A program made the position numbers and the translations under genes. Below, piece after piece: positions 4,581 to 35,081 of a stretch of 64,000 nt of DNA. How positions within the stretch are numbered: the stretch's first letter is position 1; each line of letters opens with the position of its first letter. The stretch is from the NCBI GenBank assembly GCA_048939995.1, contig JBHLOY010000003.1, positions 288,001 to 352,000 of the forward strand, written 5' to 3'. The notes beneath the pieces are model-generated. The model did no database searches, had not been told where the DNA came from, and saw nothing but the letters and a program-made list of their open reading frames with translations. Source of the stretch: Promethearchaeota archaeon (lineage in GTDB: Archaea; Asgardarchaeota; Lokiarchaeia; Sigyniarchaeales; SOKP01).

Positions 4581-5297
4581 TCAGAATTTATAGATTACCT
4601 CAAAGGGTAAATCATTAAAAATATCTTCCGCAAGTTTTTTAAATTCTCCATCTAAGGCTTTATATCCCCTACAAGCATAATTCTTTAGAAGAAATTTAGT
4701 TGGTAGTAACTCCGATACTAATTTTTTCAATCCGAGTAAACTTTTCTGATTATCGTTAATTCCTTCTAAAATTACGCTTACTACGATTAGTTCTCCTTTA
4801 AATGTTTTTCTAAATAACCTCACCCCTTCAATTAAATCTTCTAAATAAATTCCCTCGTGTTGTCTACATATCTCTTGAAATTCATTTGGAATAACACTCA
4901 CGAGTTCAATTAACATTAAATCACACAAAGAACAATCTTCTCTTACTTCCTTGCGAGAAAGGAGGGAACCATTCGTTGAAATTCCAATTTTTATGTTTGG
5001 ATACATTCTTTTTATTAACATTGAAAGCTGTTTAAAAGACGCATAAAGAGTAGGTTCTCCAAATCCCGTCATCCAAACAATATTGGGTTCTCCTTTTAGT
5101 TCAATATATTCTCTAATTTCTCTAAAAATATCTCCAGGAGGATAAAATTCTTTTCTTTCAATGGTTTTATCTGTTGTTGGACCAGTTCCACAATAAATAC
5201 AATTAAAATTACATACTTTGAAAGGGTTAAAATTTATAGATAAAACTTTACCAAATCTACTGTCTTCTTTAAATCCCTTAACAAATTTCCACCCCAT
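4581..5297 (-). CDS. Radical SAM protein, COG0731-like (cassette copy 1, intact CxxxCxxC)
   Basis: CNFNCIYC, GFGEPTL, TNGSLL and GINDN motifs. Confidence 0.9.
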   Translation of the reverse strand: MGWKFVKGFKEDSRFGKVLSINFNPFKVCNFNCIYCGTGPTTDKTIERKEFYPPGDIFREIREYIELKGEPNIVWMTGFGEPTLYASFKQLSMLIKRMYPNIKIGISTNGSLLSRKEVREDCSLCDLMLIELVSVIPNEFQEICRQHEGIYLEDLIEGVRLFRKTFKGELIVVSVILEGINDNQKSLLGLKKLVSELLPTKFLLKNYACRGYKALDGEFKKLAEDIFNDLPFEVIYKF

Positions 5298-5321
5298 AAT
5301 CCCTTCACATATACTTTGCTC

Positions 5322-7862
5322 TTAATCTTCATCTGAATTTAATTCAAATTGCTTTATCTTTAATAAATAATTGTTAGCTTTCTTTAACCAATGCTCCTTT
5401 TTCTCCATTTCACATAAACATGAATGGGTGTAATCCTTCCCTTGTTCTAACATTTGGATGGATAGGTCATATTCTTTAAGATGATAGAAACAAATACCCA
5501 TTTTAATGAAAGTTTGATATACAAAAAACCCATAAGGCTCTAGACCTATAGCTGTTTTAAATAACTCGATTGCCTTCTTATAATGTTTAAATATCATTAA
5601 TATTTCTCCATACGAATCATGGTAATTTCCATTGTTTGGCTCTAAACTTACTAATTTTTCAGCTAAATCAATTGATTCTTTCTCACGATCTAGATAAGCT
5701 AAACCATAAACCATACTATTTACTAAATCATTGTCATCATGATATAATTCCATGAGTTTACTTAAAATTTCGTATGATTCCTCATATCTCTTCGGATCAT
5801 TTTCATAATAACCCATCTTAATCAACATATATGCTTTTTTATGCAATATATGCTTACTCTTGTCAGGAAACATAGGTAAAATTTCAGCTATCAATTCTAA
5901 TGCTTCATCAAATCTTTTGCCTAAGTTATACCCAAGTATCTTATTGTAGTAATAATCAATAATTTTAGGTCTTAACTCAATTGCCTCATCAATTGCTTCA
6001 AATGCTTCTTCAAATTGTCTTAACTCAAATAAAATTATTGCTTTTAACTGATAACATCGTGAGATGTTTAATTCACTTGACTCGAGAGAGATTGCCTCCT
6101 CGATTTCTTTGACAAACTTGTCTAATTTAACCTGATTTTTGTCCCATTCGAAAATAGTATTATATCCCAGTACCATTGCTCTATTCAAATGAGAAATAGG
6201 ATGATCGGAGTGAAAACTTATACTATCCTCTGAAATTTTGAATGCTTTCTTAAAATCCCCTATTGATAAATGTGAAAAGCTAAGAATAAATAAAATTACC
6301 GGTATAAGATCATTTCGGCCTAATTCCTCCAATTTATCAAGTTGTTTATCTAAAATTTCAATTGCTTCTTTCAGGTTACTATATAGACATAGAACAATTG
6401 ACTTTAATATGTACAACTCAACTTTTTTTGCATCAGATTTAAGTGCAGAACCAATTAGTTCCAAAGCTTTGTTCACATCTTTATTATCAATACAAGACAA
6501 CACTTCTTTAAATAATGGTTTAATGTCTTTGATATAATATTCTGCTAATGCTTTCAAAACTTCTGGATATAAATAATACCTTACTTCTTTCTGCCCTTTA
6601 AGAGGATGATCCAAATCTTCTGATTCAATAGTTCTGAGCATTAATGGGATATTTTCATAAATAAATCCCTCTAACTTATCAGAAGCATCTACTAACTGTT
6701 TCTCAGTTTCAACTTTATAGGATAAATATTTGATGTATTCTGGTAAAAATTCTTTTAGAGATCCCTTTAAATTTTTATGAAATAAATCATTGCAAATATC
6801 ATCAATAATATCATCAATTAAGGTATACATTGTATAATAAGGATATCCACTTAATTTATTTAGATAAGTAAATTTCGTTACATAATCGTCAACAATAGCT
6901 CGAAGCACCCGCTCAATTTTTTCATCTGACTGAAAATAAAAATGCTTATCACCATCAAATTTCAAACTCCAAAATTTAATCGGATAGATCTCCTTCTCTA
7001 CAATCTGATGAATATGAAATTTCAAGATGATCTCTTCAATATCATATCGTAAAGCAAATTCATCTGGAGAAATATATCTTGGATATGAATCAGGATGATT
7101 TATCGAGAAAAATAGTAATAACTTCTTGAAATCTTCCTCATCATCTAGTGAATTCTGCACTTTAGCATAATCCATCTTTAATACATTATTTAAAAATCGA
7201 AATTTTACATCCTTATCCTCAATACTATACTTTCTAAAGAATTCTCGCGTCTTTTTGGTGATCTCTTCAATCCTTTTACTCTCTTCCTCTAAAATAGATT
7301 GTCGGTCAAGATCATATAATCGTAACATGCGAGAATACTCTATTTTTCCCGCTTCTGTAATCTTATATCGCTTATTATCTTTCTGGACATAACTATTCTC
7401 CATTAATAGATTTAAATTTTTTGAGAGTGATGATTGGTTTATATAAACAGGTGTATTCTCCCTAAGAAAATCACTCCATTTGCAGTAACTATTATTGTAT
7501 AACATCCATAAGATCCAATGATCATAATTCCTCCTTCTTAAAACCGCTTTGGGAGGATAATTCAATCTCCTCTTTGATTTTTTCCGACGCGATAATTCAT
7601 GATACCTCTCTCTACCGGCATTTGTAATTATATAGATACCTCTCTTGATATTCTCTATATATCCTTTACTTTCTAACCGATTCTTGTAATTTGAAAGGGT
7701 TGATTGACTAATACTTACTGGATCTTCAGTAAAATGAGACCATTCACACTCATTATTATTATATAACATCCAAAGTATAATAAGCTCAAAATTTCTCTTA
7801 CCCATAGGAGAATTAGATAAAATTTCTTCAGGAGGCAAGTTTACTTGCTCACTTTTACTCAT
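5322..7862 (-). CDS. Tandem winged-helix + TPR putative transcriptional regulator (cassette copy 1)
   Basis: Two N-terminal ILWMLYNN..C.WS.F...I.QS.LS wHTH repeats and a C-terminal TPR array. The ATG at 7862 (MSKSEQV) matches the paralog N-termini better than 7937. Confidence 0.8.
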   Translation of the reverse strand: MSKSEQVNLPPEEILSNSPMGKRNFELIILWMLYNNNECEWSHFTEDPVSISQSTLSNYKNRLESKGYIENIKRGIYIITNAGRERYHELSRRKKSKRRLNYPPKAVLRRRNYDHWILWMLYNNSYCKWSDFLRENTPVYINQSSLSKNLNLLMENSYVQKDNKRYKITEAGKIEYSRMLRLYDLDRQSILEEESKRIEEITKKTREFFRKYSIEDKDVKFRFLNNVLKMDYAKVQNSLDDEEDFKKLLLFFSINHPDSYPRYISPDEFALRYDIEEIILKFHIHQIVEKEIYPIKFWSLKFDGDKHFYFQSDEKIERVLRAIVDDYVTKFTYLNKLSGYPYYTMYTLIDDIIDDICNDLFHKNLKGSLKEFLPEYIKYLSYKVETEKQLVDASDKLEGFIYENIPLMLRTIESEDLDHPLKGQKEVRYYLYPEVLKALAEYYIKDIKPLFKEVLSCIDNKDVNKALELIGSALKSDAKKVELYILKSIVLCLYSNLKEAIEILDKQLDKLEELGRNDLIPVILFILSFSHLSIGDFKKAFKISEDSISFHSDHPISHLNRAMVLGYNTIFEWDKNQVKLDKFVKEIEEAISLESSELNISRCYQLKAIILFELRQFEEAFEAIDEAIELRPKIIDYYYNKILGYNLGKRFDEALELIAEILPMFPDKSKHILHKKAYMLIKMGYYENDPKRYEESYEILSKLMELYHDDNDLVNSMVYGLAYLDREKESIDLAEKLVSLEPNNGNYHDSYGEILMIFKHYKKAIELFKTAIGLEPYGFFVYQTFIKMGICFYHLKEYDLSIQMLEQGKDYTHSCLCEMEKKEHWLKKANNYLLKIKQFELNSDED

Positions 7863-7956
7863 AACAATAACTCTTTTACGGTAATCTATTCCATAATATA
7901 TAATTAGTAAAAGTTCAATATAAGGTTTCTCGTTCACAAGTCGATATGAACATTAT

Positions 7957-7974
7957 TTGAAGTTCGAACTTCAA
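7957..7974. promoter_or_regulatory. Perfect 18-bp palindrome, putative operator
   Basis: TTGAAGTTCGAACTTCAA in the divergent intergenic region; its TGAAGT-N4-ACTTCA core recurs at 34753-34768. Confidence 0.6.
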
Positions 7975-8058
7975 CTGAACAACATGAAGATAAACTAAAT
8001 ATGCACTTAGTGATTATAATTTCTTAAGAAAAAAAACTTAAAAAAGGAGTTAAAAAAA

Positions 8059-8319
8059 ATGGTACAAGTATATGAAAAGCATGGAATAGAAGACCTATTA
8101 GAGGTTAAAGCATGTGTAGTAGAGTCGCTCCCTGTAGTAGAGGAATGCACAGAATGCAGAGAAAGTAAAGAGGAGCAGAGCAAATCGCGATCATTTTTCA
8201 ATAGACTTTCAAAAAAGAACGTTAATTCCAAATCAAACGCTAAAATTTTAGAGGAGCAAGTCCATATCGACAAGCTCAAGCGTGGACTTCCTATTTCAGG
8301 GAGATTTTATATGGGCTAA
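8059..8319 (+). CDS. Small protein divergent from wHTH-TPR copy 1
   Basis: AAGGAG RBS upstream; the N-terminus MVQVYEK...LLEV resembles MVQVLEK...LVEV at 34866. Confidence 0.7.
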   Translation: MVQVYEKHGIEDLLEVKACVVESLPVVEECTECRESKEEQSKSRSFFNRLSKKNVNSKSNAKILEEQVHIDKLKRGLPISGRFYMG

Positions 8320-8361
8320 AAAAGCCGAATATTAAAAAAATTAAAAAATGAGGAGAGAAAA

Positions 8362-8433
8362 ATGAATAAAAATGAAGAATTAAGAGTATCTGATATAATA
8401 GTTATTCAGAATCCAGCATATATAATGTATTAA
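8362..8433 (+). CDS. 23-aa peptide MNKNEELRVSDIIVIQNPAYIMY (below the ORF-track size cutoff)
   Basis: GAGGAG RBS upstream; paralog of identical length at 11356-11427. Confidence 0.65.
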   Translation: MNKNEELRVSDIIVIQNPAYIMY

Positions 8434-8503
8434 ATAAATCAATCAATTTTTTTATTTTTAATTAACCATTACGGGTACATTTTTCATTTCCATTATTGAC
8501 ACA

Positions 8504-8562
8504 TAAGGGAGGGGTGTTGGATTGATTTTTTATCACTTTTCCTTTACCTTTTCCCTCCCTTA
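8504..8562. repeat. Hairpin element copy 1 (TAAGGGAGGG-N39-CCCTCCCTTA)
   Basis: 10-bp perfect inverted repeat; homologous copy at 23235-23293. Confidence 0.65.
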
Positions 8563-8592
8563 ACCTTTATCTTTTTAAATTGTATTTTGATT

Positions 8593-9096
8593 TTAAAAGG
8601 CTGAATGGCATTCTTCCACAATAGTACATGTCGGACAGACTTTACGTTTCATATGAATAAGCATTAAAGATAGCGCAGCTATAAATCCAATTAAAAATAT
8701 TAAAGCAAATAAAGAAAAGTTCAGAAAAAACGAAATAATTATTAAAATAATTGGTGAAAAAAACGTTATGAAAAAATTGATGCTCCATTTTTTTGCACAA
8801 GTTACATGCTTCTTTAGATACATTTCTTTCCATTTATCTAAAGGCAAGAGATTCGTGCTAATCATTCCTGTCTCATCATCTGTTGTTGTTTCCTTTACCC
8901 TATAATAACAATATTGACAATGCTTTAATGGCATTGCAAAAAAGTAAAACCCTATATAAAATGTTAAATACACCATAGCAACCCAAAAGTTAAGAAATAT
9001 TATCCCTATAGTACCAAAAGCCAACATAGCAAACCTCAAAACCCATTGAACTACAGGTTTAGTGTAGGGACACTTTAAATTAAATATCATATTCAT
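8593..9096 (-). CDS. Membrane protein with Cys clusters (hypothetical)
   Basis: About 4 TM segments; CQYC and CPTC...C motifs. Confidence 0.7.
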   Translation of the reverse strand: MNMIFNLKCPYTKPVVQWVLRFAMLAFGTIGIIFLNFWVAMVYLTFYIGFYFFAMPLKHCQYCYYRVKETTTDDETGMISTNLLPLDKWKEMYLKKHVTCAKKWSINFFITFFSPIILIIISFFLNFSLFALIFLIGFIAALSLMLIHMKRKVCPTCTIVEECHSAF

Positions 9097-9235
9097 TCAA
9101 CCTAGATTAAATTAACTATTTACAATTTCTCAATGCTTCATTTCTTTTATATTTGGTTTTTTCTAAGCAGTAATATTATTTTGGGGTAAAAACAGATATA
9201 GTAAGCTTTTAACAAGATTTTTCAATAAAAATTTC

Positions 9236-9263
9236 ATTGAACTTAGACGCTGAATTTACCTTC
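9236..9263. repeat. 28-bp intergenic repeat, copy A
   Basis: ATTGAACTTAGACGCTGAATTTACCTTC. Confidence 0.7.
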
Positions 9264-9278
9264 TATAACAAGTTAAGT

Positions 9279-9737: not shown

Positions 9738-9759
9738 CCTTCTACTCCATTATTTAAGA

Positions 9760-10080: not shown

Positions 10081-10225
10081 TTTAACTTTATCTCTCTCTA
10101 CTAGAATTTTTTGTTCAGAATCAAATAAAAATAAAGATACCATTTTATAAATTTTATCTAAAAAAAATTCATCTTGAAGAATCGTCTATTTCAACTTCCG
10201 TAAGAATTTCTAGCATTGAATTTTT

Positions 10226-10253
10226 ATTGAAATCAGACCCTGAATTTACCTTC
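10226..10253. repeat. 28-bp intergenic repeat, copy B
   Basis: ATTGAAATCAGACCCTGAATTTACCTTC. Confidence 0.7.
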
Positions 10254-12535: not shown

Positions 12536-13498
12536 TTATACGCTTAACTCTTTAACTTTTAACTCCAGTTCTTCTATTCCTCTAATATCTTTAACAGATT
12601 TAGCTACATTAAATAATATTTGATAATAATTTAACGCAACGTTCTTTCCTTCCTCTCTAACAATAGCCTCACCACGTCTAAAAATTAGAACTTTTAATGC
12701 GTCAATCCGATCAACATTTGCCGCAGCAGAATATGCTTTTAAAAAGTAATCTCTCGCATTATCAAAATCATCTTTAAGAAAGTACAAAAATGCCACAGCA
12801 AAATATGAGAATTGCAAGGAGAATATAAATCCAATTTCTTCTCTTATTTCTGCAGACTTTTTATGGTATTCTAGGCCCTTATCAAGATCTTCTTTATAAA
12901 AAGAATAATAAAAAGCAAGATGTCTATATAAATAGGATTGTTCTAATTTAAAATTGCCCTCTTCTGCTAGCTCTAATCCCTTCTGATAATATTCAAAAGC
13001 ATTTTGTTTATCTCTATTATCAACTCCTTTTCTATTCTCATGATAAAGACCTAAATGAAAATAAGATTTAGATAATCCTAGTTTATCATTTATCTGGGAT
13101 CTGATATTTAGCGCTTTATCATAAAAATTCTTTGCTTCTTCAAAATCTCCTTCCAAAATTCCTTTACGGTATATGCAATTTCCATAAAGATCAAGAGCAT
13201 CAGCTAAAGTAGCCTTCGCATTAGAAGAATCTGCCAATGTTATCGCTTCCTGTAGCAAATTCATTTCATCATCATAATTAAATTCTTTAAGAAATTTTTG
13301 ATCAGTTTTGAGCTTAGCAACTTGTACTAAATATCTTGCTTTATCTTGCTTTTTTAATTCGTTTGAATCTAATATTTGTTTGATCGAATTGAGAAATAAC
13401 ATTGCGCTATCAAACTTGCCTTCAAAACGGTAAACCTCAGAGATTCTACAGACAATATTTATAAACTTGTTAAAAAGTTCTTCAAGCACGTTAATCAA
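12536..13498 (-). CDS. TPR-repeat protein (TPR_12/MalT-type repeats)
   Basis: Repeats such as EAKNFYDKALNIR...LSKSYFHLG and AFEYYQKGLELA. Confidence 0.85.
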   Translation of the reverse strand: MINVLEELFNKFINIVCRISEVYRFEGKFDSAMLFLNSIKQILDSNELKKQDKARYLVQVAKLKTDQKFLKEFNYDDEMNLLQEAITLADSSNAKATLADALDLYGNCIYRKGILEGDFEEAKNFYDKALNIRSQINDKLGLSKSYFHLGLYHENRKGVDNRDKQNAFEYYQKGLELAEEGNFKLEQSYLYRHLAFYYSFYKEDLDKGLEYHKKSAEIREEIGFIFSLQFSYFAVAFLYFLKDDFDNARDYFLKAYSAAANVDRIDALKVLIFRRGEAIVREEGKNVALNYYQILFNVAKSVKDIRGIEELELKVKELSV

Positions 13499-13739
13499 CT
13501 ATTAATACAATATTTCAGGAATTGAACTCGTTAGAAGATTAAAATTCTAAGTAGAATTATTAAATTACTTTATATATAGATTTACAGATTGAACTTCAAA
13601 CAAATTTTGATAAAAAATTTGAACTAACTCAGTTAATAAACTTGATACTGTATTAATCACTCCATTAAGTCTAAAACAACAGTTTTTTAAGAATAAATGA
13701 CTATTTTTTCTAGATCTTAAAGATTAGAGGGGGAATCAT

Positions 13740-23308: not shown

Positions 23309-23659
23309 TCAAGTGTACATCCCATCTGGTGGAGGTTTGTAATACATATTTCTATAACTTCTACCGAATAAAAGTCTTAAAATTTCTTGTATCCGTAAAA
23401 AGTCATAATTTCCAAAAATATCGCTCATATCAATGTTTCGAGGGTCAAAACCTGCTTGATCATAGATTTGCCGCTTTATAGGGTCACTCAAGATATCGTA
23501 TGCCTCTTTTAATTCTATGAATTTATCCTTAGCTTTCGGATCTTTATTAAGATCTGGATGATATTTTTTTGCTAATTTTCGATATGCTATTTTAATTTCA
23601 CTTTCAGTAGCCTCTTTTTCAACACCAAGAATTTTATAATAATCTGCTTTTTTGTTCAT
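23309..23659 (-). CDS. Short J-domain (DnaJ-like) protein
   Basis: DYYKILGV...[11 protein letters not shown]...EAYDILSD; lacks the Zn-finger and C-terminal domains of full DnaJ. Confidence 0.9.
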
Positions 23660-23798: not shown

Positions 23799-24128
23799 TC
23801 AAAATAATAAATCAAGAGATATATCCTCAGGAGAAACAACAAATAGTAACTTTTTATTACTTAACCAATATCCTATTAGATAACCTTCTGAGCTTTTAAT
23901 CGTCAGTTGCTTAAAATTACCATTGTTCGTTTCGGAAACTATTCTTCTAGCAGCAGATAAAATCGCAAGTGCTATTCCCGCAATTTTTACATGTTCAATT
24001 TCTTGAGAAAGAGTTGAATTAAGAGGCATCCCCTCATTTGAAACAATTAATGCCTCTTTTATTTCAGGAAATTTTAAATATAATTTTTTCAAAATTTTTC
24101 GATGGGAACGAGCTTGAAACAACCTCAT
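23799..24128 (-). CDS. Roadblock/LC7 (MglB-like) domain protein
   Basis: IKEALIVSNEGMPL...IAGIALAILSAARRI...QLTIKSSEG pattern. Confidence 0.8.
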   Translation of the reverse strand: MRLFQARSHRKILKKLYLKFPEIKEALIVSNEGMPLNSTLSQEIEHVKIAGIALAILSAARRIVSETNNGNFKQLTIKSSEGYLIGYWLSNKKLLFVVSPEDISLDLLF

Positions 24129-24257: not shown

Positions 24258-24914
24258 TTAAAATCTAAATGACACCTTGAATGGAAGATCGTGAAAAATC
24301 TCTTTAAGTTTGGTCTTAAATTCATCAGAGACTGACTCTAAATCTTTACCTGTAAAAACATTTACTGAAAAATGATCTGGGGTAATCTCTAGTAAATATT
24401 TCTTCAAGTCTCGAACTGTATCTAAATCATCATTTACTCCCTTGAAAAACATAGTATAAATTCTAAAATTCCCTTTAAATTCTTTTCTAAAAATTCTAAT
24501 TCCCTTTAAAATTTCTTGAACGTTAAAGAAATCAAAACAAATGCAAGATTTATGAAAATTCGAAGGAGTAACAGAATTTAAGTTAATTACTATTAAATCA
24601 CATATCAAAAGTGCCTTTCGCACTTTTTCATAATTAAAAAGAGAACAATTAATATAAACTCCCATTTTCTGATTCGGAAAACTCTCCTTAATCTTATTAA
24701 GTAAGCGATTGAATCCAAAAAATAGGTTGATATCATTAATGCCTTTTAACCAGATGTAATCGGGACTTTCCTTTTTAAGAAAATAATCCTTTAACTCACT
24801 AAATATCTCTTCAGTGGGATAATACGGAATCTGATTATCAACATAATCAAAATCTACCGGTAAAACCTTCCCAAATTTAGAACTTGTTTGGAGTTCTTTT
24901 AAATGCAGATACAA
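24258..24914 (-). CDS. Degenerate radical SAM homolog lacking CxxxCxxC (cassette copy 2)
   Basis: Aligns along its length with 4581..5297 (FGKVL, PDYIW, FRKEFKG, GVND, DLPFKV), but the Cys triad segment is deleted. Confidence 0.8.
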   Translation of the reverse strand: MYLHLKELQTSSKFGKVLPVDFDYVDNQIPYYPTEEIFSELKDYFLKKESPDYIWLKGINDINLFFGFNRLLNKIKESFPNQKMGVYINCSLFNYEKVRKALLICDLIVINLNSVTPSNFHKSCICFDFFNVQEILKGIRIFRKEFKGNFRIYTMFFKGVNDDLDTVRDLKKYLLEITPDHFSVNVFTGKDLESVSDEFKTKLKEIFHDLPFKVSFRF

Positions 24915-24950: not shown

Positions 24951-27917
24951 TCAATCTTCAGATTTTTTATCGTACAAATCTTTATGAAATGAACTCATTA
25001 TTTCTGCCATCTTTTCCATTTTTTTAATCGATTTTTGTGCTTCCTCAATATTTCCAAGCTTTTCATGGCATATACTCATTTTACGATAAGTATCAGATAT
25101 ATACCATGCTGTAGGATTAATTCTTTCAGCCTCTCGTAGTTTTTCTAGTGCTTCTTCATACTTTCCTGATTCAATTAAAAGTTCTGCATACGTATCATAG
25201 GAATTCCCATCTTCAGGATCGCAACTTATTAATGTCTCTGCTGCTTCAAATGCTTCATTCATCCTATTTAATCTTAATAACATATATGCCCTATTATTCA
25301 AAAGTTCTTTATTATCTGGAAATTGTTTTAAAATTTCGTCTATATGATTTAATCCCTTATTGTAATCTTGAAGTTTATAATATATTAATGATTCTAATTT
25401 ACCTATACAATATCTTTGTTCTGGAAATTTATTGGTAATAGATTGACTTATTCCTATAGCTTCTTTATCTTTACCAAGTGACATCATGAGTAAGACTTTA
25501 GTTTTATAAAAATCAAAATCCATTGGATTTAACTTTATAGCTTCTTCAATAGCATTCAAAGCTTCTTCATTTAATCCCAGATCTCGCAATATAAAAGCCT
25601 CAGATTGTAGATAAAGTGCTTTCTTAAAATTAATCTTTTCAATATTTAAAGCATTATTGATACTCTCTTTAAAGTCATCAATAGTCAGATCATTTAATTC
25701 ACCACTATATATCAATGAATAACCAAAAACAAGGGCTTTTGAAAGGTAAGATATAGAATAATCTTGATACTTAATTTGGCTGATATTGGCAAAATCTAAC
25801 GCTTCCTTGAATCTATTACGAGCAATATATGAATACACTAAAATTAATATCGTAGAAGTATCTATTAGAGGATTTAATCCCCAAGGGTCAATAACAAAAT
25901 TTAATTCCTCTTTAATTATCTTTTCTGCCTCTCTATACTTCTTTGTAATACATAATATCAAAGCTTTTAGGATTAAAAGCTCTTTATCCAATGGTTTTAA
26001 TTTAATTGCATTATTTATCACTTCAAGAGGTTCTTTAGGTGATCTTGTACAAACACCTTCTGTGCAAACTATGGCTAAAAATTTTGTTCTTAATAGAAGA
26101 ATATTGTTTGGGAACTCAGAAATGGCTTTATTAATTACTTTGAGACCTTCAAGTTCTTGATCTTTTTTTATTAAAATTTGAGCTTTTTGGGCTATTAATG
26201 AAATATTAAACGCATTCTGAATCCCTTCTTCAACTACTTTTAATGACTTGTCTAAGAAATCCATTAAAAAGTAAGTCATTGACTGTAATAAATAGCCAAT
26301 ATAATTTTGTGGAAATTCTTGGATTATATGGTTTGTTATTTCAATTGATTCTTCGAATCTATGACCTACTGTTTTAATAATATCATTAACTACCAAACTT
26401 TCTATCTTGTCTAAATTCTGACTTTTATCATTAAATAGATTAAAAGCTTCATTAATCTTCCCATTTTTAAGCATTTGTATAATTTGACTAACAAATTCAC
26501 GATTTGATGCTTTAAAACCCTCTATGGTTTCAATATACTCAATATAATTCAATTTGCTTAAATAGAATAGATCCATTGATTCGAAAATTTGATAATACAA
26601 TGTATAATTCAATTCAGGCTCTTTCTCTAGAGTATTAGAAGCCTTAGAAGAAAAGGTCTCAAACTCTGCCGAAATTGTCTGCCAGATAAGACTTTCTAAT
26701 TTAGTCTCATCAGTTATTAACTTCTTTTCAGTTTCAATCTTGTATGCTAAATATTTTATATAGTTCGGTAAAAATTTCCTTAGAGTATCCTTTAAATTAT
26801 CATGAAATAAGTGATTACAAATTTCACTTAAGATATTTTCAATTATATTTGAAATGGTTAATGCTGGTGCCTTTTTGTTTGTATTCTCATATAAATTATT
26901 CAAATAGGTATATCGAGTTATATAATCATCTACAATTGCTCTTAAAACTCTCTCAATTTTTTCGTTCACTTGGAAATAATACACTTTATTAGGTGAAACC
27001 TCTAATTTGAAGAACTTTATTTCATAAAATTCTTCTTCCACTATTTTATCTATGAAGAAATTCAACGTCGTTTTCTTTAAATTAAAATCACTAGAAAATC
27101 TTTCAGGTGAAATATAATCTGGATATTGATTTGGATGATTTATTGATAAAAATAATAAGATTTTGTTAAAATCTTCTTCCTCTTCCAATAGGGTCTCTAC
27201 TCGAGAATAGTTTAATTTCAATACATTATTGAGAAATCTAAACTTAATTCTATCATCCTCTATTCCATATTCTTCAAAAAATTGGGTGCTAAATTTGGTA
27301 AATTCTTGAATATGCTTACTCTCTTCTTCTAATATTGATTGACGGTCTAATTCATATTCTCTTAGAACGTTAAAATATTCTGACTTACCCAATGGAGTTA
27401 TTTTATACTCTCTATTTTCATTAATAACAAAACCATTATCCATTAAGTAATTTAGAGCTCTCGATAATGAAGATTGATTTATTTTATAGAGGATTTCTTC
27501 AAATCTAATATCTTCTAAAAAGTCGGACCATTTACAAGCTTCATTATTATAAAGCATCCATAAAATCCAATGATTATATTCCCTTCTCTTTAATATAACT
27601 TGGGGAGGGTAATTTAGCCCTTTAGGGCCCTCTCTTCCATATTGTGTTAATTCCTTATATCTTTCTATACCTTCCTGAGTAATCTTATAATAATTACGTT
27701 CAGGCTTAATTATAAATCCTTTACCAATAAGCTTATCTAAATTCTGCGATAACGTTGAAGCAGGAATCTCGAGATTATCATCTGAATCATCAGTAAAATT
27801 AGACCATTCACAATGATCCTTTCCGTAAAGATTATCACTATTATATAATTTCCAAAGAATAATATATTCTGCAGAATTATTTGCGATTTTTGCAATCTGA
27901 ATTTTGGTTTTACTCAT
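24951..27917 (-). CDS. Tandem winged-helix + TPR putative regulator (cassette copy 2)
   Basis: WILWMLYNN..CKWSDF, INQSSLS, KFRFLNNVLK, SINHP.QYP and C-terminal TPRs. Confidence 0.85.
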   Translation of the reverse strand: MSKTKIQIAKIANNSAEYIILWKLYNSDNLYGKDHCEWSNFTDDSDDNLEIPASTLSQNLDKLIGKGFIIKPERNYYKITQEGIERYKELTQYGREGPKGLNYPPQVILKRREYNHWILWMLYNNEACKWSDFLEDIRFEEILYKINQSSLSRALNYLMDNGFVINENREYKITPLGKSEYFNVLREYELDRQSILEEESKHIQEFTKFSTQFFEEYGIEDDRIKFRFLNNVLKLNYSRVETLLEEEEDFNKILLFLSINHPNQYPDYISPERFSSDFNLKKTTLNFFIDKIVEEEFYEIKFFKLEVSPNKVYYFQVNEKIERVLRAIVDDYITRYTYLNNLYENTNKKAPALTISNIIENILSEICNHLFHDNLKDTLRKFLPNYIKYLAYKIETEKKLITDETKLESLIWQTISAEFETFSSKASNTLEKEPELNYTLYYQIFESMDLFYLSKLNYIEYIETIEGFKASNREFVSQIIQMLKNGKINEAFNLFNDKSQNLDKIESLVVNDIIKTVGHRFEESIEITNHIIQEFPQNYIGYLLQSMTYFLMDFLDKSLKVVEEGIQNAFNISLIAQKAQILIKKDQELEGLKVINKAISEFPNNILLLRTKFLAIVCTEGVCTRSPKEPLEVINNAIKLKPLDKELLILKALILCITKKYREAEKIIKEELNFVIDPWGLNPLIDTSTILILVYSYIARNRFKEALDFANISQIKYQDYSISYLSKALVFGYSLIYSGELNDLTIDDFKESINNALNIEKINFKKALYLQSEAFILRDLGLNEEALNAIEEAIKLNPMDFDFYKTKVLLMMSLGKDKEAIGISQSITNKFPEQRYCIGKLESLIYYKLQDYNKGLNHIDEILKQFPDNKELLNNRAYMLLRLNRMNEAFEAAETLISCDPEDGNSYDTYAELLIESGKYEEALEKLREAERINPTAWYISDTYRKMSICHEKLGNIEEAQKSIKKMEKMAEIMSSFHKDLYDKKSED

Positions 27918-28159
27918 AATTTGATTATTTTGCCTATGTTTCTCACTTAATTAATTTAAATATGAACTTCTATTTATATTTTATAGTCCGTTACTTCGTT
28001 CCAAACTATCCCGAACAAATGTACTCCGATCAGAAGTACGCATAAATAAACTAAATATAGAAGTATTTCTTAACTTTTAATAAGTGAAAAGAAGGATTTC
28101 TAAAAAAAAATAGTCTCCCAAAGAAAAGAACAATTCAAATTAGTGAGTGGAAAGAAAAA

Positions 28160-28528
28160 ATGAGCCAAAATGTCGCGATATCAAGATATACAGATTCATT
28201 AGCAGCTGTTGAAACCATTCTTGAAGATTATTGGAAACCTAAAATTATCCCTCTTGAAAGTTTGGAACAGAAGCCTAAAACTAAAGAAAATCTGCATGAT
28301 ACGATTGCGGCTCAAAAAAGTCTTACGTACACTATTACGTTAAATGTGACTATTTTAGTGAGTTCAATTGGAGGGCTCTTACTGTTGATAACAATTAGCC
28401 CGTTATTAATACCCTTTAATATAATAATAATAATGGCATTTGCATTGGTCCAAGCTTTAGTTATAATAAAAAGCGAGACTGAATGTATTATGAAAAAAAT
28501 TAAGAAGAGGATGAGTAGGACAAAATGA
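28160..28528 (+). CDS. Small two-TM protein divergent from wHTH-TPR copy 2
   Basis: 122-aa ORF with a hydrophobic hairpin. Confidence 0.6.
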   Translation: MSQNVAISRYTDSLAAVETILEDYWKPKIIPLESLEQKPKTKENLHDTIAAQKSLTYTITLNVTILVSSIGGLLLLITISPLLIPFNIIIIMAFALVQALVIIKSETECIMKKIKKRMSRTK

Positions 28529-28653
28529 ATGAAAATAGTAAGGATGTCTTATATAAGGTCACTTATGGCGTTATAACTCTTGCTACTATTGTTATAGCCG
28601 TCTATAGTTTAATATTTTTTATTGATTCATTAATGATTGCTTTTTCAAGTTAA
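28525..28653 (+). CDS. 42-aa single-TM peptide MNENSKDVLYKVTYGVITLATIVIAVYSLIFFIDSLMIAFSS (not in ORF track)
   Basis: ATGA overlap with the upstream stop codon; AGGA upstream. Confidence 0.5.
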   Translation: MNENSKDVLYKVTYGVITLATIVIAVYSLIFFIDSLMIAFSS

Positions 28654-28702
28654 ATTCTTTTCCAGATCCGTATTTTAACAGGCCACCTGAGTGAGGGAAA
28701 CC

Positions 28703-30949
28703 TCACTCTAGCCCTGTTTCTAAAAATTTCTTTTGGTTCTTTACTTTTTTAAATATAAGGATTGATACAATAAATAAAATACAATATAGAAACATCATGT
28801 TATATCCGGGCACTGTTTCATTGTCTTCATTGTCTTCTCCGTAATTGCAGAATTGATTATCTTTAAAAATATTTCCTATACAATCCAATTCTTTTACACA
28901 CTCAGTATTCCCAAAAATAATGTTTTCATAGATATAATTGTAATTACTATGATCAAGGAATATACTGCAGCTATTATTGTTTACAATGTTTCCTGATATA
29001 CTGTTGTAATTACTAAAATAAAGCTGTATTCCATACTGATTCTTGTTTACTATGTTTCCTAAAAAAGTATTAGAATGACTATAATGTAAGTAAATCCCAG
29101 GACCAGCATTATTGTTTGCAATTATTCCGGAAATTGTATTATTATTACAGTAGTATAATGACAGCCCTAATGAACAAAAAGAAAGAATTTGGGATAATAT
29201 CGTCGAGTTATTACAATTAACAAGAATAATTTGTCCTGCATTTACAAAATCATTTAATCCTAAATTAATTTCATTCTTGTAATAATATAGTGGTCTTCCA
29301 TTTACTAAATTTGTAGTATCTATATTATTGGAACTTAATTCATTTCTGGATCCATACAATCTTCCTAATCCGCACTCATTCATAATATTTCTTCTAAAAG
29401 TATTATTAAGGTTATAATATATAAACATCCCATATTGGCTATTGTTTATGATATTGTCAATAATTATACTATTCGTAGCAGAACCTAATTCTATTCCAAA
29501 ATTCTTATTATTAATTAGTTTATTTTGGGAAAAGAGGTTATCATCACCATACGATAAATATATCCCCTCAGTACTATTATTTATAGCGTTTTCCACTATA
29601 TCATTATGGTTGCAATTATATCCAAATGATATTCCACAATAATCTGCATATATAATATTTTTTAAAATCTTATTACGATCACTGCTCCATAAATCTATAC
29701 CAACGCCACAACCATCTAATTCATTATCTGAAATGAAGTTACCATGACAGTATCTCAATTCTATCCCATAAATGTTATTATTGTTTAAAATACTCCCTGA
29801 AATATTGTTTTGGTTGCTATAATAAAGCTTTATTCCGTACTGGTTATTGTTTAATGTGTTTCCTAAAAAAGTATTAGAATGACTATAATGTAAGTAAATC
29901 CCAGAACCCCTATTATTTTTTGCGATGATTCCCGAAATTGTATTATTCGTACAGTAGTATAATGATAGCCCCAAAGAACAAAAAGAAAGATTTTGGGATG
30001 ATACCATTGAGTTATTACAATTAACTAAAATAATCTGTCCTGCATTTAAAAAATCGTTTGATTCTAAATTAATTTCATTCTTGTAATAATATAATGGCTT
30101 TCCATTTACTAAATTTGTAGAATCTATATTATTGGAACTTAATTCCTCACTCGTTCCAGGTCCAAAGAAGTGTCCAAACCCGCATTCACTCATGATATTT
30201 TTTCTAAAAGTATTATTAAGGCTATGAGATAAGCTCATCCCCGAAAGACAACTATTAAGAATATTATCTAATATTACGTTATTCTCCGCAGAAACTAATC
30301 TTATACCTTCCTCCTTATAATTTACTCTATTTCCAGATACATTATTATTAGATCCAAAAATATGTATCCCTGCAATACCAATATTAACAACATTACCTAT
30401 AATTTTGTTCTTATTGCTATTAGCTAAATGTATGCCATAATCATTATTATTTACGTTGTTCTCTTTAATAGTATTATTATTACTATTCTCTAAGTTTATT
30501 CCTTTTCGGTTATATGAACAGTTATTTCTAATTACCATTCCATTATTAACTCCGAACAAGTTTATTCCCGCATCCTTGGTGTACCATTCACTGCCAGAAT
30601 TATAAATCGTGCAATTTTCAATTTTAAAATATACGTTAGAATTTTCAATAATGATACAGCTTCCTAATCCTCCACCATCTATTATTAAGTCTTCAATATA
30701 GTAAGGATCAGTAAATGTGCCTGAACCAGTGCAGTTGCCAGCATTTCTAAAAGCAACCCAGCCAGAATTATCGATAATGCGGATTCTTACAGAACTTCTG
30801 GAACTAATTAGATTTTCTAATCTTATTTCAGAGTTACCTGTATATTCATCCCTATTATCAAGGTGATAATTTAAATTGAAATTTACCAGAGAAAATAATA
30901 GAAATGTAACTCCTAAGGTTATGAAAATAACTTTTATTCTAGATTTCAT
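28703..30949 (-). CDS. Cell-surface parallel beta-helix (NosD/CASH) protein with C-terminal PGY-TM anchor
   Basis: Signal peptide, GSGTFTDPYYIE, many GI.L..S.NN.I..N repeats, duplicated TNLVNG(K/R)PLYYYKNEINL...AGQIILVNC block, and VPGYN + TM + basic tail. Confidence 0.85.
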   Translation of the reverse strand: MKSRIKVIFITLGVTFLLFSLVNFNLNYHLDNRDEYTGNSEIRLENLISSRSSVRIRIIDNSGWVAFRNAGNCTGSGTFTDPYYIEDLIIDGGGLGSCIIIENSNVYFKIENCTIYNSGSEWYTKDAGINLFGVNNGMVIRNNCSYNRKGINLENSNNNTIKENNVNNNDYGIHLANSNKNKIIGNVVNIGIAGIHIFGSNNNVSGNRVNYKEEGIRLVSAENNVILDNILNSCLSGMSLSHSLNNTFRKNIMSECGFGHFFGPGTSEELSSNNIDSTNLVNGKPLYYYKNEINLESNDFLNAGQIILVNCNNSMVSSQNLSFCSLGLSLYYCTNNTISGIIAKNNRGSGIYLHYSHSNTFLGNTLNNNQYGIKLYYSNQNNISGSILNNNNIYGIELRYCHGNFISDNELDGCGVGIDLWSSDRNKILKNIIYADYCGISFGYNCNHNDIVENAINNSTEGIYLSYGDDNLFSQNKLINNKNFGIELGSATNSIIIDNIINNSQYGMFIYYNLNNTFRRNIMNECGLGRLYGSRNELSSNNIDTTNLVNGRPLYYYKNEINLGLNDFVNAGQIILVNCNNSTILSQILSFCSLGLSLYYCNNNTISGIIANNNAGPGIYLHYSHSNTFLGNIVNKNQYGIQLYFSNYNSISGNIVNNNSCSIFLDHSNYNYIYENIIFGNTECVKELDCIGNIFKDNQFCNYGEDNEDNETVPGYNMMFLYCILFIVSILIFKKVKNQKKFLETGLE

Positions 30950-31026
30950 ATTTCGCTAGCAATTGGTATTTACCAATAATAAATATTCTAAGTGGCAATT
31001 TAAATCTTATCTTTCTATTAGAAATC

Positions 31027-31686
31027 TTAGAATGTGAATGAAACTTTAAAAGGAAGGTTTTTAAGAATATCTTTAGCTTTATTCTTAAATTCATCAGAAA
31101 TAGATTCAAACCCATTCCCTGTAAAAGTATTCACTGAAAAATGGTCAGGTTTAATATCCAACAAAAATGTTTTTAGGTCTAGCATATCGTTAAGATTATC
31201 GTTGACACCGTCTATGAGTATCGCATACACCCTAAAACGACCTTCAAACTCTTTTCGGAAAGTTTTAATCCCATCTAGGATAGCTTGAACATTTACTTCC
31301 TCATCACATACACAAGATTTAAAAAAAGTTAATGGATTTACTGTATTCAAATTAGTGACGATTAGATCACATTGGGAGAGTTCTTTACGAACTATTTTAT
31401 ATCGAAATAATGAACAATTAACATACACTCCCAATTTCTGGTTAGGAAATTCTCTTTTTACTCTTTTAAGCAATTCTTGAAATCCATAAAATAGTTCCAT
31501 ATTTTTGACTCCTTTTAACCAGATATAATCTGGTTTTCCCTTCTTTTTGAAATAATCTTTAATTTCAGAGAATATAGCCTCTACAGGATAAAATTGAATT
31601 GACTCCTCGTTAGATTTAAGATTAATTGGTAAAATTTTTCCAAATTTCGAATTAATTTGCATCTCTTTTAAATGTATATACCCCAA
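31027..31686 (-). CDS. Degenerate radical SAM homolog lacking CxxxCxxC (cassette copy 3)
   Basis: Close paralog of 24258..24914 (HLKE.Q..SKFGK, PDYIWLKG, NCSLF, KSC.C, PDHFSVN.FTG). Confidence 0.8.
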   Translation of the reverse strand: MGYIHLKEMQINSKFGKILPINLKSNEESIQFYPVEAIFSEIKDYFKKKGKPDYIWLKGVKNMELFYGFQELLKRVKREFPNQKLGVYVNCSLFRYKIVRKELSQCDLIVTNLNTVNPLTFFKSCVCDEEVNVQAILDGIKTFRKEFEGRFRVYAILIDGVNDNLNDMLDLKTFLLDIKPDHFSVNTFTGNGFESISDEFKNKAKDILKNLPFKVSFTF

Positions 31687-31704
31687 TTACTCACCTAAAT
31701 GCTT

Positions 31705-34659
31705 TTAATTATACATATCTTTTATTAATGGTAATGTCTTTCCTTTTACCTCATTCATTTTTTTAAAGCATTTTTTAGCTTCCTCTGTATTACCAAGATT
31801 TTTATAACATTCTCCCATTTTGCGGTAGGTTTCAAAAATATACCATCCTGAGGGATTGATTTCAATCGCTTTTTCAAATTTCTCTATCGCACTTTCATAT
31901 CTTTTCAGTTCCATCAAAATTTCTCCATAAGTATCATAAGAATTTCCTTCTTCGGGATCAATTTCTATTAATTTCTCTATTGTTTCAAGTGCTTCTTCTA
32001 ATCTGTTCAATTTAACTAATATTAATGCTTTATTATTTTGCAGTGGCTTGTTATTCGGATCCTCAGCAAGAACTTCATCAATAGCATTTAAACCCGAATT
32101 ATAATCTTTTATCTTAAAATATATGAATGATTTAAGCAGGTTCATTTTAAGCAAATGTTTTGGGAAATTTTCAATTATCAGATCAATGAGCCTAATTGCT
32201 TCATTGTCTCTATTCATTGCAATCATGAAAATAACTTTTGATTTATAATAGTCTATATCCCTATCATTCAGTTTAATTGCCTCATCTATTGCATCTATCG
32301 CATCTTGATGTTTTCCAATCTGATTTAATATTATGGCTTTTAATTGGTAGTACATAGCTCTATTAAATTTGAGAGGATCAATTAAAGCTTTATCTATTTC
32401 AGTATTGAAATCATCTAAAGTAACTCCTTCTAGATTGCCATTGTAAATAAGAGAATAACCAAACACAAGAGCATTTATTACAAAAGAAATTGGATTATTT
32501 GGATAAGTAGCTAAGCATTGATTTGCCACTTTTAATGCATCACCAAACCTGCCACGCCCTATATATGAGTGAGCTAAAAGTAATAAGGCAGAAGTATCAA
32601 TAAGCGGATTCGGTTCAAAAGGATTTATTGCAAAATTCAATTCATCTTTAATAATATTTTCTGCATCTTTAAATTTTGAATTAAGACTAAATAGTGCTGC
32701 TTTTAAGATTATCAAATCCTTATTCATTGGTTTTAACTTAATAGCTGTCTCAATCAAATTCACGGGTTTTTCAAAGTTTTTTTGGCAGAATTCTACTTGT
32801 TTAACCATTGCTGAAAACTTGGTGCGCAATAATAAGACATTATTAGGGTTCTTGGAAATTGCTTTTTCAATGATCTTTTGGCCTTCCTCTTCTTCATCTT
32901 TTCTAATGAGAATCTGAGTCTTTTGGGCGATTAAAACAAAATTATATGCATTTTTTATTCCTTGTTCAATTATATCTAATGATTTCTCTAAATCATTCAT
33001 CAAGAAATAAGTAATTGATTGAAATAAGTAACCTAAATAATCTTTAGGTCTTTTTTCGATTAATTTATCAGTAATTTCAATTGACTCTTGAAATCTAAAT
33101 TGTGAGGTATAAATTAAATCTTGAAATATCAATTTTTCAATTTCGTTTAATTTATCTTGTCTATTATTAAATAGAGATAGTACATCACTAAAATCACCTT
33201 TTCTTAAAATTTGTACAAATTCATCTAATAATTCTAAGTTGGATGGAGAAATCTCATCATAACTTTCAATATATTCTATAAAGTCTAACTTATATAAGTA
33301 AAATATATTTAGCGTCTCAAAGAACTCATTATTAAGCACATAACTTACTTCACCTTCCTTTTCTTGGCTCTCAGAAGGTCTAATTGAAAATGCCTCAAAT
33401 TCAGTTGAGATTGCCTGCCAAATTAAACTTTCTAATTTAGATTCATCGGTTACCAATTTTTTCTCGGTTCCAATCTTATATGCTAAATCCTTTATATATT
33501 GTGGTAAAAATCTCAAGAAAGCATCTTTTAAATCCTCATGGAATAAAATTACGCAGCCTTCACTTACTATTTTATTAATTATAGAACTAATATCGATAGA
33601 GGAAGGTTTATCACTTACAAATTCGCTTAATTTGTTCAAATATGTGAATTTCGTTATTTTTTCATCTACTGATGCCCTTAACATTCTTTCAAGTTTTTCA
33701 TTTTCCTGAAAGTAAAGTTCTTTACTGGGAAATACATCTAATTTGAAGAATTTTGTATCATAGAGATCTTGATCTACTATTTTTTGTATGAAAAATTTTA
33801 AGGTGTTTATATCAATATCATATTCGGAAGAAAATTGTTCAATTGATATGTATTTTGGATATTGATCCGGGTGATTCATAGATAAAAACAAGAGAATTTT
33901 GTAAAACTCTTCTTTATCTTCAACCATTGTTTTGACTTTTGCATAATCTAATTTTATTATGTTATTCAAGAACCTGAATTTTACATCATCATCTTTAATT
34001 TGATAAGCCTTAAAGAAATCAATAGTTTCTCTTGTAATTTGCTCAATTCTTTTACTTTCTTCCTCTAAAAGTGATTGGCGATCTAAATCATATGACTTTA
34101 GTATCTTTAGATATTCAGTTTCTCCTAAAGAAGTAATTACGTAATCTTTATTGTTGTTCTTTTGAATATAACCACTTTCTATCAATGAATTTAGACTGTT
34201 AGATAGAGAGGATTGATTGATAGATAGCGGCTCATCCTTGAAATCAGACCATCTACATGAATTATTATTATATAGCATCCATAGAATGCAATGTTCATAG
34301 TTTCTCTTATTTATAATCAACCTTGGTGGATAATTTAGTTTACTTTCTACTTCATCCTTTTTCCTGGATAATTCAAAGAGCCGTTCTTTTCCCTTAGAAG
34401 TAATTTTATAAACATTACAAATTCTTTCATTTTTTTTCTTAGAGACTTTCATAATATAACCTCCATCCATTAAGCGATTTAACCAATTAGAAAGAGTGGA
34501 TTGACTTATATTGACTGGATCATTTGTAAAGTGAGACCATTCCAACTCCTCATTATAATTTAGCATCCAAAGAATAATTTGATCGAATCTTTTTTTACTA
34601 AATGGAGGGGGAGAGATTATTTCATCAGGTGGATAAGATATAATATCTGTTATACCCAT
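31705..34659 (-). CDS. Tandem winged-helix + TPR putative regulator (cassette copy 3)
   Basis: Two ILWML.NN..WS.F...I.QS.LS wHTH repeats, conserved middle domain and C-terminal TPRs. Confidence 0.85.
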   Translation of the reverse strand: MGITDIISYPPDEIISPPPFSKKRFDQIILWMLNYNEELEWSHFTNDPVNISQSTLSNWLNRLMDGGYIMKVSKKKNERICNVYKITSKGKERLFELSRKKDEVESKLNYPPRLIINKRNYEHCILWMLYNNNSCRWSDFKDEPLSINQSSLSNSLNSLIESGYIQKNNNKDYVITSLGETEYLKILKSYDLDRQSLLEEESKRIEQITRETIDFFKAYQIKDDDVKFRFLNNIIKLDYAKVKTMVEDKEEFYKILLFLSMNHPDQYPKYISIEQFSSEYDIDINTLKFFIQKIVDQDLYDTKFFKLDVFPSKELYFQENEKLERMLRASVDEKITKFTYLNKLSEFVSDKPSSIDISSIINKIVSEGCVILFHEDLKDAFLRFLPQYIKDLAYKIGTEKKLVTDESKLESLIWQAISTEFEAFSIRPSESQEKEGEVSYVLNNEFFETLNIFYLYKLDFIEYIESYDEISPSNLELLDEFVQILRKGDFSDVLSLFNNRQDKLNEIEKLIFQDLIYTSQFRFQESIEITDKLIEKRPKDYLGYLFQSITYFLMNDLEKSLDIIEQGIKNAYNFVLIAQKTQILIRKDEEEEGQKIIEKAISKNPNNVLLLRTKFSAMVKQVEFCQKNFEKPVNLIETAIKLKPMNKDLIILKAALFSLNSKFKDAENIIKDELNFAINPFEPNPLIDTSALLLLAHSYIGRGRFGDALKVANQCLATYPNNPISFVINALVFGYSLIYNGNLEGVTLDDFNTEIDKALIDPLKFNRAMYYQLKAIILNQIGKHQDAIDAIDEAIKLNDRDIDYYKSKVIFMIAMNRDNEAIRLIDLIIENFPKHLLKMNLLKSFIYFKIKDYNSGLNAIDEVLAEDPNNKPLQNNKALILVKLNRLEEALETIEKLIEIDPEEGNSYDTYGEILMELKRYESAIEKFEKAIEINPSGWYIFETYRKMGECYKNLGNTEEAKKCFKKMNEVKGKTLPLIKDMYN

Positions 34660-34752
34660 TTTTTTTAACCTATTTTTTTTTGCTCCTTAGTTATTATATT
34701 AGTATTAGTTCAATATAAAGTTTTCAGTTCAGATAATCAATTGGAGTTCGAA

Positions 34753-34768
34753 TGAAGTACTGACTTCA
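34753..34768. promoter_or_regulatory. Palindrome TGAAGT-ACTG-ACTTCA, putative operator
   Basis: Same arms and spacing as the core of 7957-7974, in the equivalent divergent intergenic region. Confidence 0.6.
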
Positions 34769-34865
34769 GCATGAAGTATAAAGCACGAACCTATAAATAA
34801 AGTCTCACCCTAATTAAAATTAAGAAAAAAAAACAAAACAAGAAAAAAAAAAGAGTGAAAGAAAA

Positions 34866-35081
34866 ATGGTTCAAGTATTAGAAAAGCCCCAGGAAATAGT
34901 TTTAGTTGAAGTTCCTGAGGTTAAAAAGGAAGTAAAAGCCAGTAAGATTCAAGAAATAAAAGCAAAACTTAGTCGAGTAAAAGACTATGCTAAAAAGCAT
35001 GAATATTACTTGAATATAAAAGACGTTAAAACCGAAATGGCTACAAATTCCTATGGCATGAGACTATTTAGGAATTATTAA
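34866..35081 (+). CDS. Small protein divergent from wHTH-TPR copy 3
   Basis: MVQVLEK N-terminus shared with 8059..8319; followed by a T-rich terminator-like tract. Confidence 0.7.
   Translation: MVQVLEKPQEIVLVEVPEVKKEVKASKIQEIKAKLSRVKDYAKKHEYYLNIKDVKTEMATNSYGMRLFRNY

Follow-up and report, generated by a model that had tools for sequence, protein, structure and literature searches.

The stretch of DNA analysed here (the window, 64,000 nucleotides of contig JBHLOY010000003.1 from a Promethearchaeota archaeon) carries three cassettes that share a head-to-head layout: a large regulator with N-terminal winged helices and a C-terminal tetratricopeptide repeat (TPR) array, a radical S-adenosylmethionine (SAM) homologue close behind it and, facing both, divergent genes for very small proteins. 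The regulator is very probably a one-component activator of a micro-protein regulon, as judged from comparative sequence analysis. We denote the regulators T1, T2 and T3, the paired radical SAM homologues R1, R2 and R3, and the small proteins S1a, S1b, S2a, S2b and S3; G000 is the window's own genome, and G019 and L-numbers are genomes and loci of relatives. All open reading frames (ORFs) that the initial annotation had reported for the cassettes were recovered in the same places: the radical SAM homologues follow T1, T2 and T3 after gaps of 24, 36 and 18 nt, and small ORFs of 86 and 23, 122 and 42, and 71 amino acids (aa) stand opposite the three regulators, respectively.

4581-5297, minus strand: R1, 238-aa radical SAM core with CxxxCxxC intact (PF04055, E 1.7e-16)
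5322-7862, minus strand: T1 regulator, 846 aa, mid-length class (Pfam HTH_45/HTH_34 and TPR); in the AlphaFold2 model, winged helices at residues ~25-91, ~113-180 and ~266-311, a helical middle domain and a TPR array at ~430-845
8059-8319, plus strand: S1a, 86-aa class A micro-protein, with a GGAG ribosome-binding-type site at 8046
8362-8433, plus strand: S1b, 23-aa class B peptide, with GAGGAG at 8350
24258-24914, minus strand: R2, 218-aa radical SAM pseudoenzyme, cluster loop deleted
24951-27917, minus strand: T2 regulator, 988 aa, long class
28160-28528, plus strand: S2a, 122-aa small membrane protein of class D (19-aa hydropathy 2.6)
28525-28653, plus strand: S2b, 42-aa single-pass membrane peptide (hydropathy 2.5)
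31027-31686, minus strand: R3, 219-aa radical SAM pseudoenzyme, cluster loop deleted
31705-34659, minus strand: T3 regulator, 984 aa, long class
34866-35081, plus strand: S3, 71-aa class A micro-protein

Purine-rich ribosome-binding-type sites lie upstream of the 86-, 23-, 122- and 71-aa ORFs. A possible GTG start would extend T1 to 7937, into its own TATA box, and T1 orthologues begin at ATG; T1 is therefore read as 846 aa from the ATG. The cassettes had been called triplicated, and there are indeed three copies, but a recent triplication is ruled out by identities of 45% (T1/T3) and 52% (T2/T3) and by the placement of these old paralogues in separate clades. The small proteins of cassette 2 are membrane proteins unrelated to those of cassettes 1 and 3. 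Five more paralogues of the regulator, all without a radical SAM gene, bring the number in the genome to eight.

Motif discovery in 114 upstream regions returned the palindrome GAACTTC-N4-GAAGTTC, followed by AAACTATATAT. This predicted operator scores at least 15 bits in 79 of the 114 regulator upstream regions, compared with 0.05 in shuffles and 15 of 2307 upstream regions genome-wide, and its centre lies 21 nt ahead of the TATA box in 44 of 69 cases and 39-40 nt ahead of it in 19. In each window cassette, one unit is centred 21-22 nt ahead of the TATA box that serves the divergent genes; the units of T2 and T3 have a 5-nt spacer. The promoter features of the window, with scores from a position weight matrix (PWM), are as follows.

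7917-7923, minus strand: TATA-like box of the T1 promoter, read from the sequence
7946-7967 and 7964-7985: tandem predicted operator of cassette 1 (PWM 18.6 and 17.8 bits), the proximal unit centred 21 nt before the TATA at 7996
13568-13611, minus strand: probable trans site of the same regulon, operator plus TATA before a 320-aa TPR gene at 12536-13498 (44-mer PWM, 24 bits)
28023-28037: variant operator of cassette 2, ACTCC-N5-GAAGT, a regular-expression match at which the 4-nt-spacer PWM scores 0, centred 22 nt before the TATA at 28052
34712-34719, minus strand: TATA-like box of the T3 promoter, with predicted operator units upstream on the minus strand too (44-mer PWM match directed at T3)
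34741-34762: predicted operator of cassette 3 (PWM 19.1 bits), together with ACTTC-N5-GAAGT at 34763-34777 (regular-expression match), the N5 unit centred 22 nt before the TATA at 34792

Out of sample, the predicted operator was found before 10 of 15 MFS_3 transporter orthologues, most at the same offset, before ~14 genes of a second wHTH-like (winged helix-turn-helix) protein, and before the first genes of orphan micro-gene arrays; in 11 cases it stands at the regulator's own promoter. The best genomic sites, 45-100 nt before start codons, belong to regulator loci and to genes for an aldo-keto reductase (no close orthologue of which was found for site comparison), an MFS pump, a flavodoxin-ferredoxin protein and the TPR protein at 12536-13498, and another trans site precedes a hydrolase gene divergent from a glyoxalase gene. 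At L058:1474-2448, L036:6384-7322 and ~12 similar loci, the predicted operator lies upstream of a gene whose product, of 299-327 aa, weakly matches a wHTH family (Penicillinase_R) and is possibly a second-tier regulator; its G000 homologue (C37:105542) is without the site.

Two AlphaFold2 models of the regulator, with mean pLDDT (predicted local distance difference test) values of 85 and 90, contain three winged-helix units, then a middle domain made of helices and finally a TPR superhelix, so that the TPR array and N-terminal winged helices described at first reading stand and the count of two winged helices does not. The first two units match MarR/PadR-type folds (Z ~9-10). The DNA-binding domain and the conserved site just upstream of BRE (the B recognition element)/TATA that mark a one-component activator are thus both present, and the placing of the site between back-to-back promoters fits the earlier proposal that the winged helices act at the divergent promoter. 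Tandem MarR/PadR-type winged helices would, with high probability, bind the GAACTTC-N4(5)-GAAGTTC units, which repeat every ~18 bp between the two promoters. Binding at the fixed position 21-22 nt upstream of TATA would then probably activate the divergent promoter; some sites are directed at the promoter of the regulator itself as well. We infer that the palindrome is both the regulator's binding site and the point from which it activates; the predicted targets are arrays of 1-6 micro-genes, together with the MFS_3 exporter, the second wHTH regulator and other genes.

The regulator family comes in size classes of ~640 aa (short), ~840 aa (mid) and ~990 aa (long). A profile of its 413 N-terminal positions finds it in 107 of the 134 genomes of the window's family and, beyond that family, in 2 of 26 genomes of the same class and in 1 more in a phylum-wide sample; it is nearly confined to one Promethearchaeota (Loki) family. 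The linkage proposed for Asgard genomes at large accordingly holds across genera and does not extend to Asgard archaea as a whole. Loci were chosen by their score to T3, so that the long class is over-sampled, and related genomes are not independent, so that the micro-gene and locus counts given here are descriptions rather than tests. Among the 122 loci with sufficient flank, the regulator occurs with a radical SAM gene in 39 and with a class A or B micro-gene in 79, a linkage far beyond chance.

At ~140 regulator loci the divergent strand carries arrays of 1-6 micro-genes. Class A proteins (S1a, S3) measure 69-102 aa, contain a run rich in lysine and share a conserved motif at the C-terminus. 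Class B peptides (S1b) measure 21-29 aa, and in them a basic start leads into an I-I-I-x-N strand and then an aromatic end, S1b itself having a basic N-terminus, the strand I-I-V-I-Q-N and a C-terminal Tyr. Class C consists of C2C2 zinc ribbons, and class D of small membrane proteins (S2a, S2b). Class A or B is present at 42 of 53 long, 27 of 36 mid and 10 of 33 short or partial loci. Several observations indicate that the micro-genes are real, conserved coding families. In nucleotide alignments of 15 close pairs, made with no identity filter, identity by codon position is 0.84/0.86/0.79 for class A and 0.87/0.89/0.81 for class B, lowest at the third position in both, and the filtered dN/dS is 0.36 for class A, 0.44 for class B and 0.40 for class C. 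A ribosome-binding-type site precedes 57 of 59 class B matches as against 65 of 442 other short ORFs, a comparison that is partly circular. The class A profile has matches in 90 of 161 genomes, in genera that also have the regulator, and 26 of 40 further class A matches have a regulator in the region examined (9 of the 40 come from one orphan locus). S1a orthologues are 77-81% identical, and G019 holds S1b with 18 of 22 residues identical, S3 as an 85% identical copy, S2b at 74% identity and, in its array, a 37% identical homologue of S2a. The C-terminal residue is F, Y or W in 38 of 55 class A and 33 of 54 class B products, compared with 12% genome-wide.

Class A could be assigned to no family from Pfam or the ESM Atlas. 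Homology between classes A and B was not accepted (profile comparison probability 0.5%), despite a similarity of their N-terminal strands by eye. In a 27-aa gene at L040:13686-13766, the beginning of a class A gene runs into the body of a class B gene, suggesting a deletion within an array. Orphan arrays at L181:5595-5819, L190, L176 and L177 open with another family, of 60-80 aa, with the conserved tail W-K-x-S...Y-Y...K-F-x-F...L and a homologue at G000 C38:7479-7667.

The short radical SAM proteins of the cassettes, which from their N-terminal motif we take to be of COG0731 type, had been described as live or dead, and the alignment bears this out: R1 keeps CxxxCxxC, and R2 and R3 are without that loop through a clean deletion of ~20 residues. 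The motif is retained by R1 and 7-8 relatives only. It is deleted in R2, R3 and 36 other loci; these 38 dead forms make up one clade (SH-aLRT 94) and, since they are under purifying selection (dN/dS 0.21, compared with 0.15 for the regulator), are pseudoenzymes rather than pseudogenes. Live forms accompany one mid-size regulator clade and dead forms only the long class (34 of the 51 with data), and 17 long-class regulators, like most of the mid and short ones, have no such gene. The free 315-aa radical SAM protein that the genome encodes at C6 shares 34.5% identity with R1, and no solved structural relative of R1 was found at E<=0.01. Unlike the free member of COG0731 type, the cassette proteins are shorter, linked to the regulator and mostly without the CxxxCxxC loop. 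NifU was ruled out as the neighbour of free 241-aa relatives, that neighbour being a MaoC dehydratase.

What such a protein does has been considered in two ways. In a pathway of the RiPP (ribosomally synthesized and post-translationally modified peptide) type, the micro-proteins would be precursors, and the enzyme modifying them would be the linked radical SAM protein or, in certain loci, a B12-dependent radical SAM enzyme of 745 aa. The intact motif of R1 would agree with it, as would the B12 radical SAM gene of 736-747 aa found behind class A genes at several loci, G000 C1 among them. But the linked radical SAM protein is dead at 38 loci and missing at the majority of the rest, without loss of the arrays; at 218-243 aa it is a core alone in Pfam, with no SPASM/twitch-type C-terminal extension or RRE domain, and scores far below every cut-off of the NCBIfam maturase models; its gene lies downstream of the regulator and on the strand opposite to the peptides, rather than being co-transcribed with a precursor; and class B is mostly Cys-free (48 of 54). 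A maturase role is unlikely on these grounds and the pathway as a whole very improbable, and we consider the gene to be, in all likelihood, an accessory one co-expressed with the regulator. The association of class A with a B12-dependent radical SAM gene at short- or mid-class loci (L218:3677-7546, which is G000 C1, and L164, L165, L170, L171, L182 and L185) could represent a peptide-modifying sub-system. Alternatively, and compatibly with the other readings, the protein could act on the regulator as its regulatory subunit; live forms would report Fe-S or SAM status, and dead forms would serve as constitutive or ligand-only partners. The gaps of mostly 3-60 nt to the regulator, the single loss of the cluster loop followed by retention across two genera, and the restriction of dead forms to the long-TPR class all speak for such a role, which we still regard as rather unlikely, given the many regulators without the gene and a mosaic of regulator and radical SAM trees at one locus or more (L032).

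The TPR register (with P742 and P776 at position 32) puts N715, N746, D749 and E753 at positions 5, 2, 5 and 9, through which TPRs touch their peptide ligands (PMC1261162). Conservation is complete for D749 and 96% for E753, and the pair N715/N746 occurs in 57 of 59 long and 34 of 41 mid regulators, the classes that mostly face micro-gene arrays, and in none of the full-length short ones. These conserved residues would fit a peptide ligand, although the fit is only suggestive. It is fairly likely that the concave groove of the last TPRs binds an extended peptide by means of these four residues; that this ligand comes from class B or class A, with a basic stretch and an aromatic C-terminus, and acts in the cytoplasm, is a possibility that we put forward with less confidence, and the same applies to the groove's reading of the regulator's own micro-proteins inside the cell. 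Taken together, a family-specific one-component activator with a micro-protein regulon and an intracellular feedback loop through its own products is the model we prefer, tentatively.

Several observations weigh against the feedback part of this model. The groove was assigned from the TPR register and not from model coordinates. The Asn pair follows clade and is therefore not independent evidence, 11 short paralogues have micro-genes without the pair, and D749 and E753 are conserved also in short paralogues that face secreted proteins instead of micro-genes. Pairing is not strictly cognate, because the 85% identical S3 copy in G019 faces a regulator closer to T2 (69/61%) than to T3 (57/51%), and T2 itself faces membrane proteins only. 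Distant homologues of the regulator face genes for an NYN RNase, a PD-(D/E)XK nuclease or ubiquitin, so that the older logic would be that of a sensor with an effector operon. Prediction of a complex between full-length T1 and S1a, both given as alignments, gave no answer (score 0.00) and is evidence neither way.

Pure effector output is nearly as likely as intracellular ligand reading: the same activator would drive the same regulon, the micro-proteins would be the output of a stress, dormancy or detoxification response, and the TPR array would sense another protein, a damage product or its own linker. That basic peptides, C2C2 zinc ribbons and membrane proteins, which are unrelated, occur together in arrays, that peptides shift between regulator clades, and that the distant homologues stand opposite nucleases and ubiquitin all favour such an output, as do the trans sites before the aldo-keto reductase, MFS pumps, flavodoxin-ferredoxin protein and glyoxalase-divergent hydrolase and the DJ-1/PfpI genes downstream of mid-class regulators. 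Retention of the Asn pair in the classes opposite arrays argues for ligand reading instead; a common receptor is suggested by the short strand motif of class B and by the strong selection for an aromatic C-terminus, and no other kind of gene stands behind the predicted operator nearly as often as micro-genes do (at least 90 of 193 sites), though in loci picked near regulators. Cell-to-cell signalling of the RRNPP kind, in which class B peptides or class A tails would be exported leaderless, for example by the MFS_3 pump, and re-imported by an oligopeptide ABC transporter, is improbable. An MFS_3 gene with its own operator directly follows the arrays in 12 of 34 mid-class loci, oligopeptidase F and peptide ABC genes adjoin some paralogues, and leaderless RRNPP peptides are known (PMC12700828). 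However, no MFS gene adjoins any of the three window cassettes, the importer and peptidase genes are not conserved as neighbours, and none of the 55 class A and 54 class B products reaches a 12-residue hydropathy mean of 2.0 in search of a hydrophobic export stretch (best <=1.7), compared with ~3 by hand calculation for SHP1358 (sequence in PMC7564271).

Other genes at or near these loci may be recorded here. Behind R1 lie an ATC-hydrolase-family gene (3749-4564, minus strand) and a DJ-1/PfpI gene (3144-3713), families found downstream of 12 and 8 of 37 mid-class regulators, respectively, some with their own predicted operator. A Roadblock/LC7 gene (23799-24128) and a short J-domain gene (23309-23659, minus strand) come after R2, in the same order as in L002. 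A 748-aa NosD/beta-helix protein (28703-30949, minus strand) separates cassettes 2 and 3, and a single G019 cassette holds the micro-genes that the window divides between T2 and T3. After S3 comes a 160-aa protein (35343-35825, plus strand) with no Pfam match, which follows the array in L002 too, and a B12-binding radical SAM gene (35868-37328) and a 654-aa protein with an N-terminal TrmB-type HTH (37407-39371, minus strand) adjoin cassette 3. The middle domain of the regulator (model residues 184-404) resembles a stand-alone cluster of 213-aa Promethearchaeota proteins in the Atlas (TM 0.71 by target). The distant homologues at L202, L203, L204, L206 and L207, opposite NYN/Zc3h12a RNase, PD-(D/E)XK nuclease (one with weak HerA-like matches) or ubiquitin genes, possibly mark defence loci. 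L216:8821-12419 (G000 C17) holds a TPR-less paralogue of 431 aa and, behind it, an 89-aa gene headed by the predicted operator; this gene, ubiquitin-like by eye, converges on E2, E1 and JAB genes, and several neighbouring promoters bear the predicted operator. One subfamily of Rab-like small GTPases accompanies short and mid regulators (G000 C37:26992, C38:8021, C38:13720 and C1:3677; L163:5026-5592), with 4 of the 5 closest, out of 53 in the genome, near one; it has its own promoter motif, and its members were ruled out as part of the regulon, with a predicted operator in 1 of 64.

In the literature searched, we found no published description of this regulator/micro-gene system, and none of transcription-factor regulons or peptide signalling in Asgard archaea. 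What the locus offers, all of it open to testing in vitro without culture of the host, is a regulator family with its predicted operator and regulon, together with several families of micro-proteins that have no Pfam match. Even if the micro-proteins are not ligands, they represent a large hidden micro-proteome under one regulator, accompanied by a conserved radical SAM pseudoenzyme.

Among known systems, the first two winged-helix units match the folds of MarR/PadR/Sso10a-type proteins such as BldR (3f3x) and PadR (5x11), with Z of 9-10. The top Foldseek match to the N-terminal half is RPC62 (E 4.5e-4), which reflects tandem winged helices and not orthology, because the TM-score is only 0.16, and WhiP, with its tandem wHTH, is a feature-level lead (0.88); none of these has three winged helices joined to a TPR array. 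The radical SAM RiPP operons of streptococci controlled by Rgg/SHP, such as that for streptide, reportedly bring a TPR regulator, small genes and a radical SAM gene together at one locus. The analogy that the initial annotation had drawn with them is not supported, in that the Asgard protein is a short core without SPASM, shares the regulator's transcript rather than that of the peptides, and is dead or missing at most loci. The promoter arrangement resembles that of GvpE-activated divergent promoters in halophilic archaea, whose activator sites likewise lie between two promoters that point away from each other, a short and constant distance upstream of BRE/TATA (PMC2241852). Protein and motif are unrelated to GvpE, and it is the spacing that suggests activation in the Asgard system.

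The proposed likeness to RRNPP systems holds for the layout and does not amount to membership. The DNA-binding part of RRNPP regulators is one small XRE-type HTH. The Asgard regulator has three winged helices and a 200-residue middle domain where RRNPP(A) proteins have no more than a single small HTH, immediately N-terminal to the TPR core; it measures 630-1000 aa, with 10 or more helical pairs in place of 5-9 TPRs (PMC12700828), and its loci have archaeal TATA promoters and arrays of up to six unrelated micro-genes. The Asgard peptides are basic and non-hydrophobic, unlike propeptides with a secretion stretch of the Sec or SHP type, although leaderless export is possible, and their loci have no conserved exporter, protease or importer. 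The best 50 Foldseek and best 60 hidden Markov model matches listed were generic TPR proteins, with no RRNPP protein such as Rap, Rgg, NprR, PlcR, PrgX or AimR among them. Shared with RRNPP(A), and with Rgg/SHP and ComR/ComS in particular, are a cytosolic one-component regulator, an N-terminal DNA-binding part, C-terminal TPRs as putative ligand-binding domain and an adjoining very small gene, here a conserved micro-gene (PMC12700828, PMC7564271), and both systems have several paralogous pairs of regulator and small gene per genome. An independently evolved Asgard peptide-sensing circuit, in which activators with three wHTH units and a TPR array read self-encoded peptides, in the cell or after leaderless MFS export, and a radical SAM pseudoenzyme modulates the receptor, is conceivable, although we hold it with some doubt. 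If the micro-proteins are indeed ligands, archaea would have in these loci a counterpart to RRNPP signalling that is assembled from other components.

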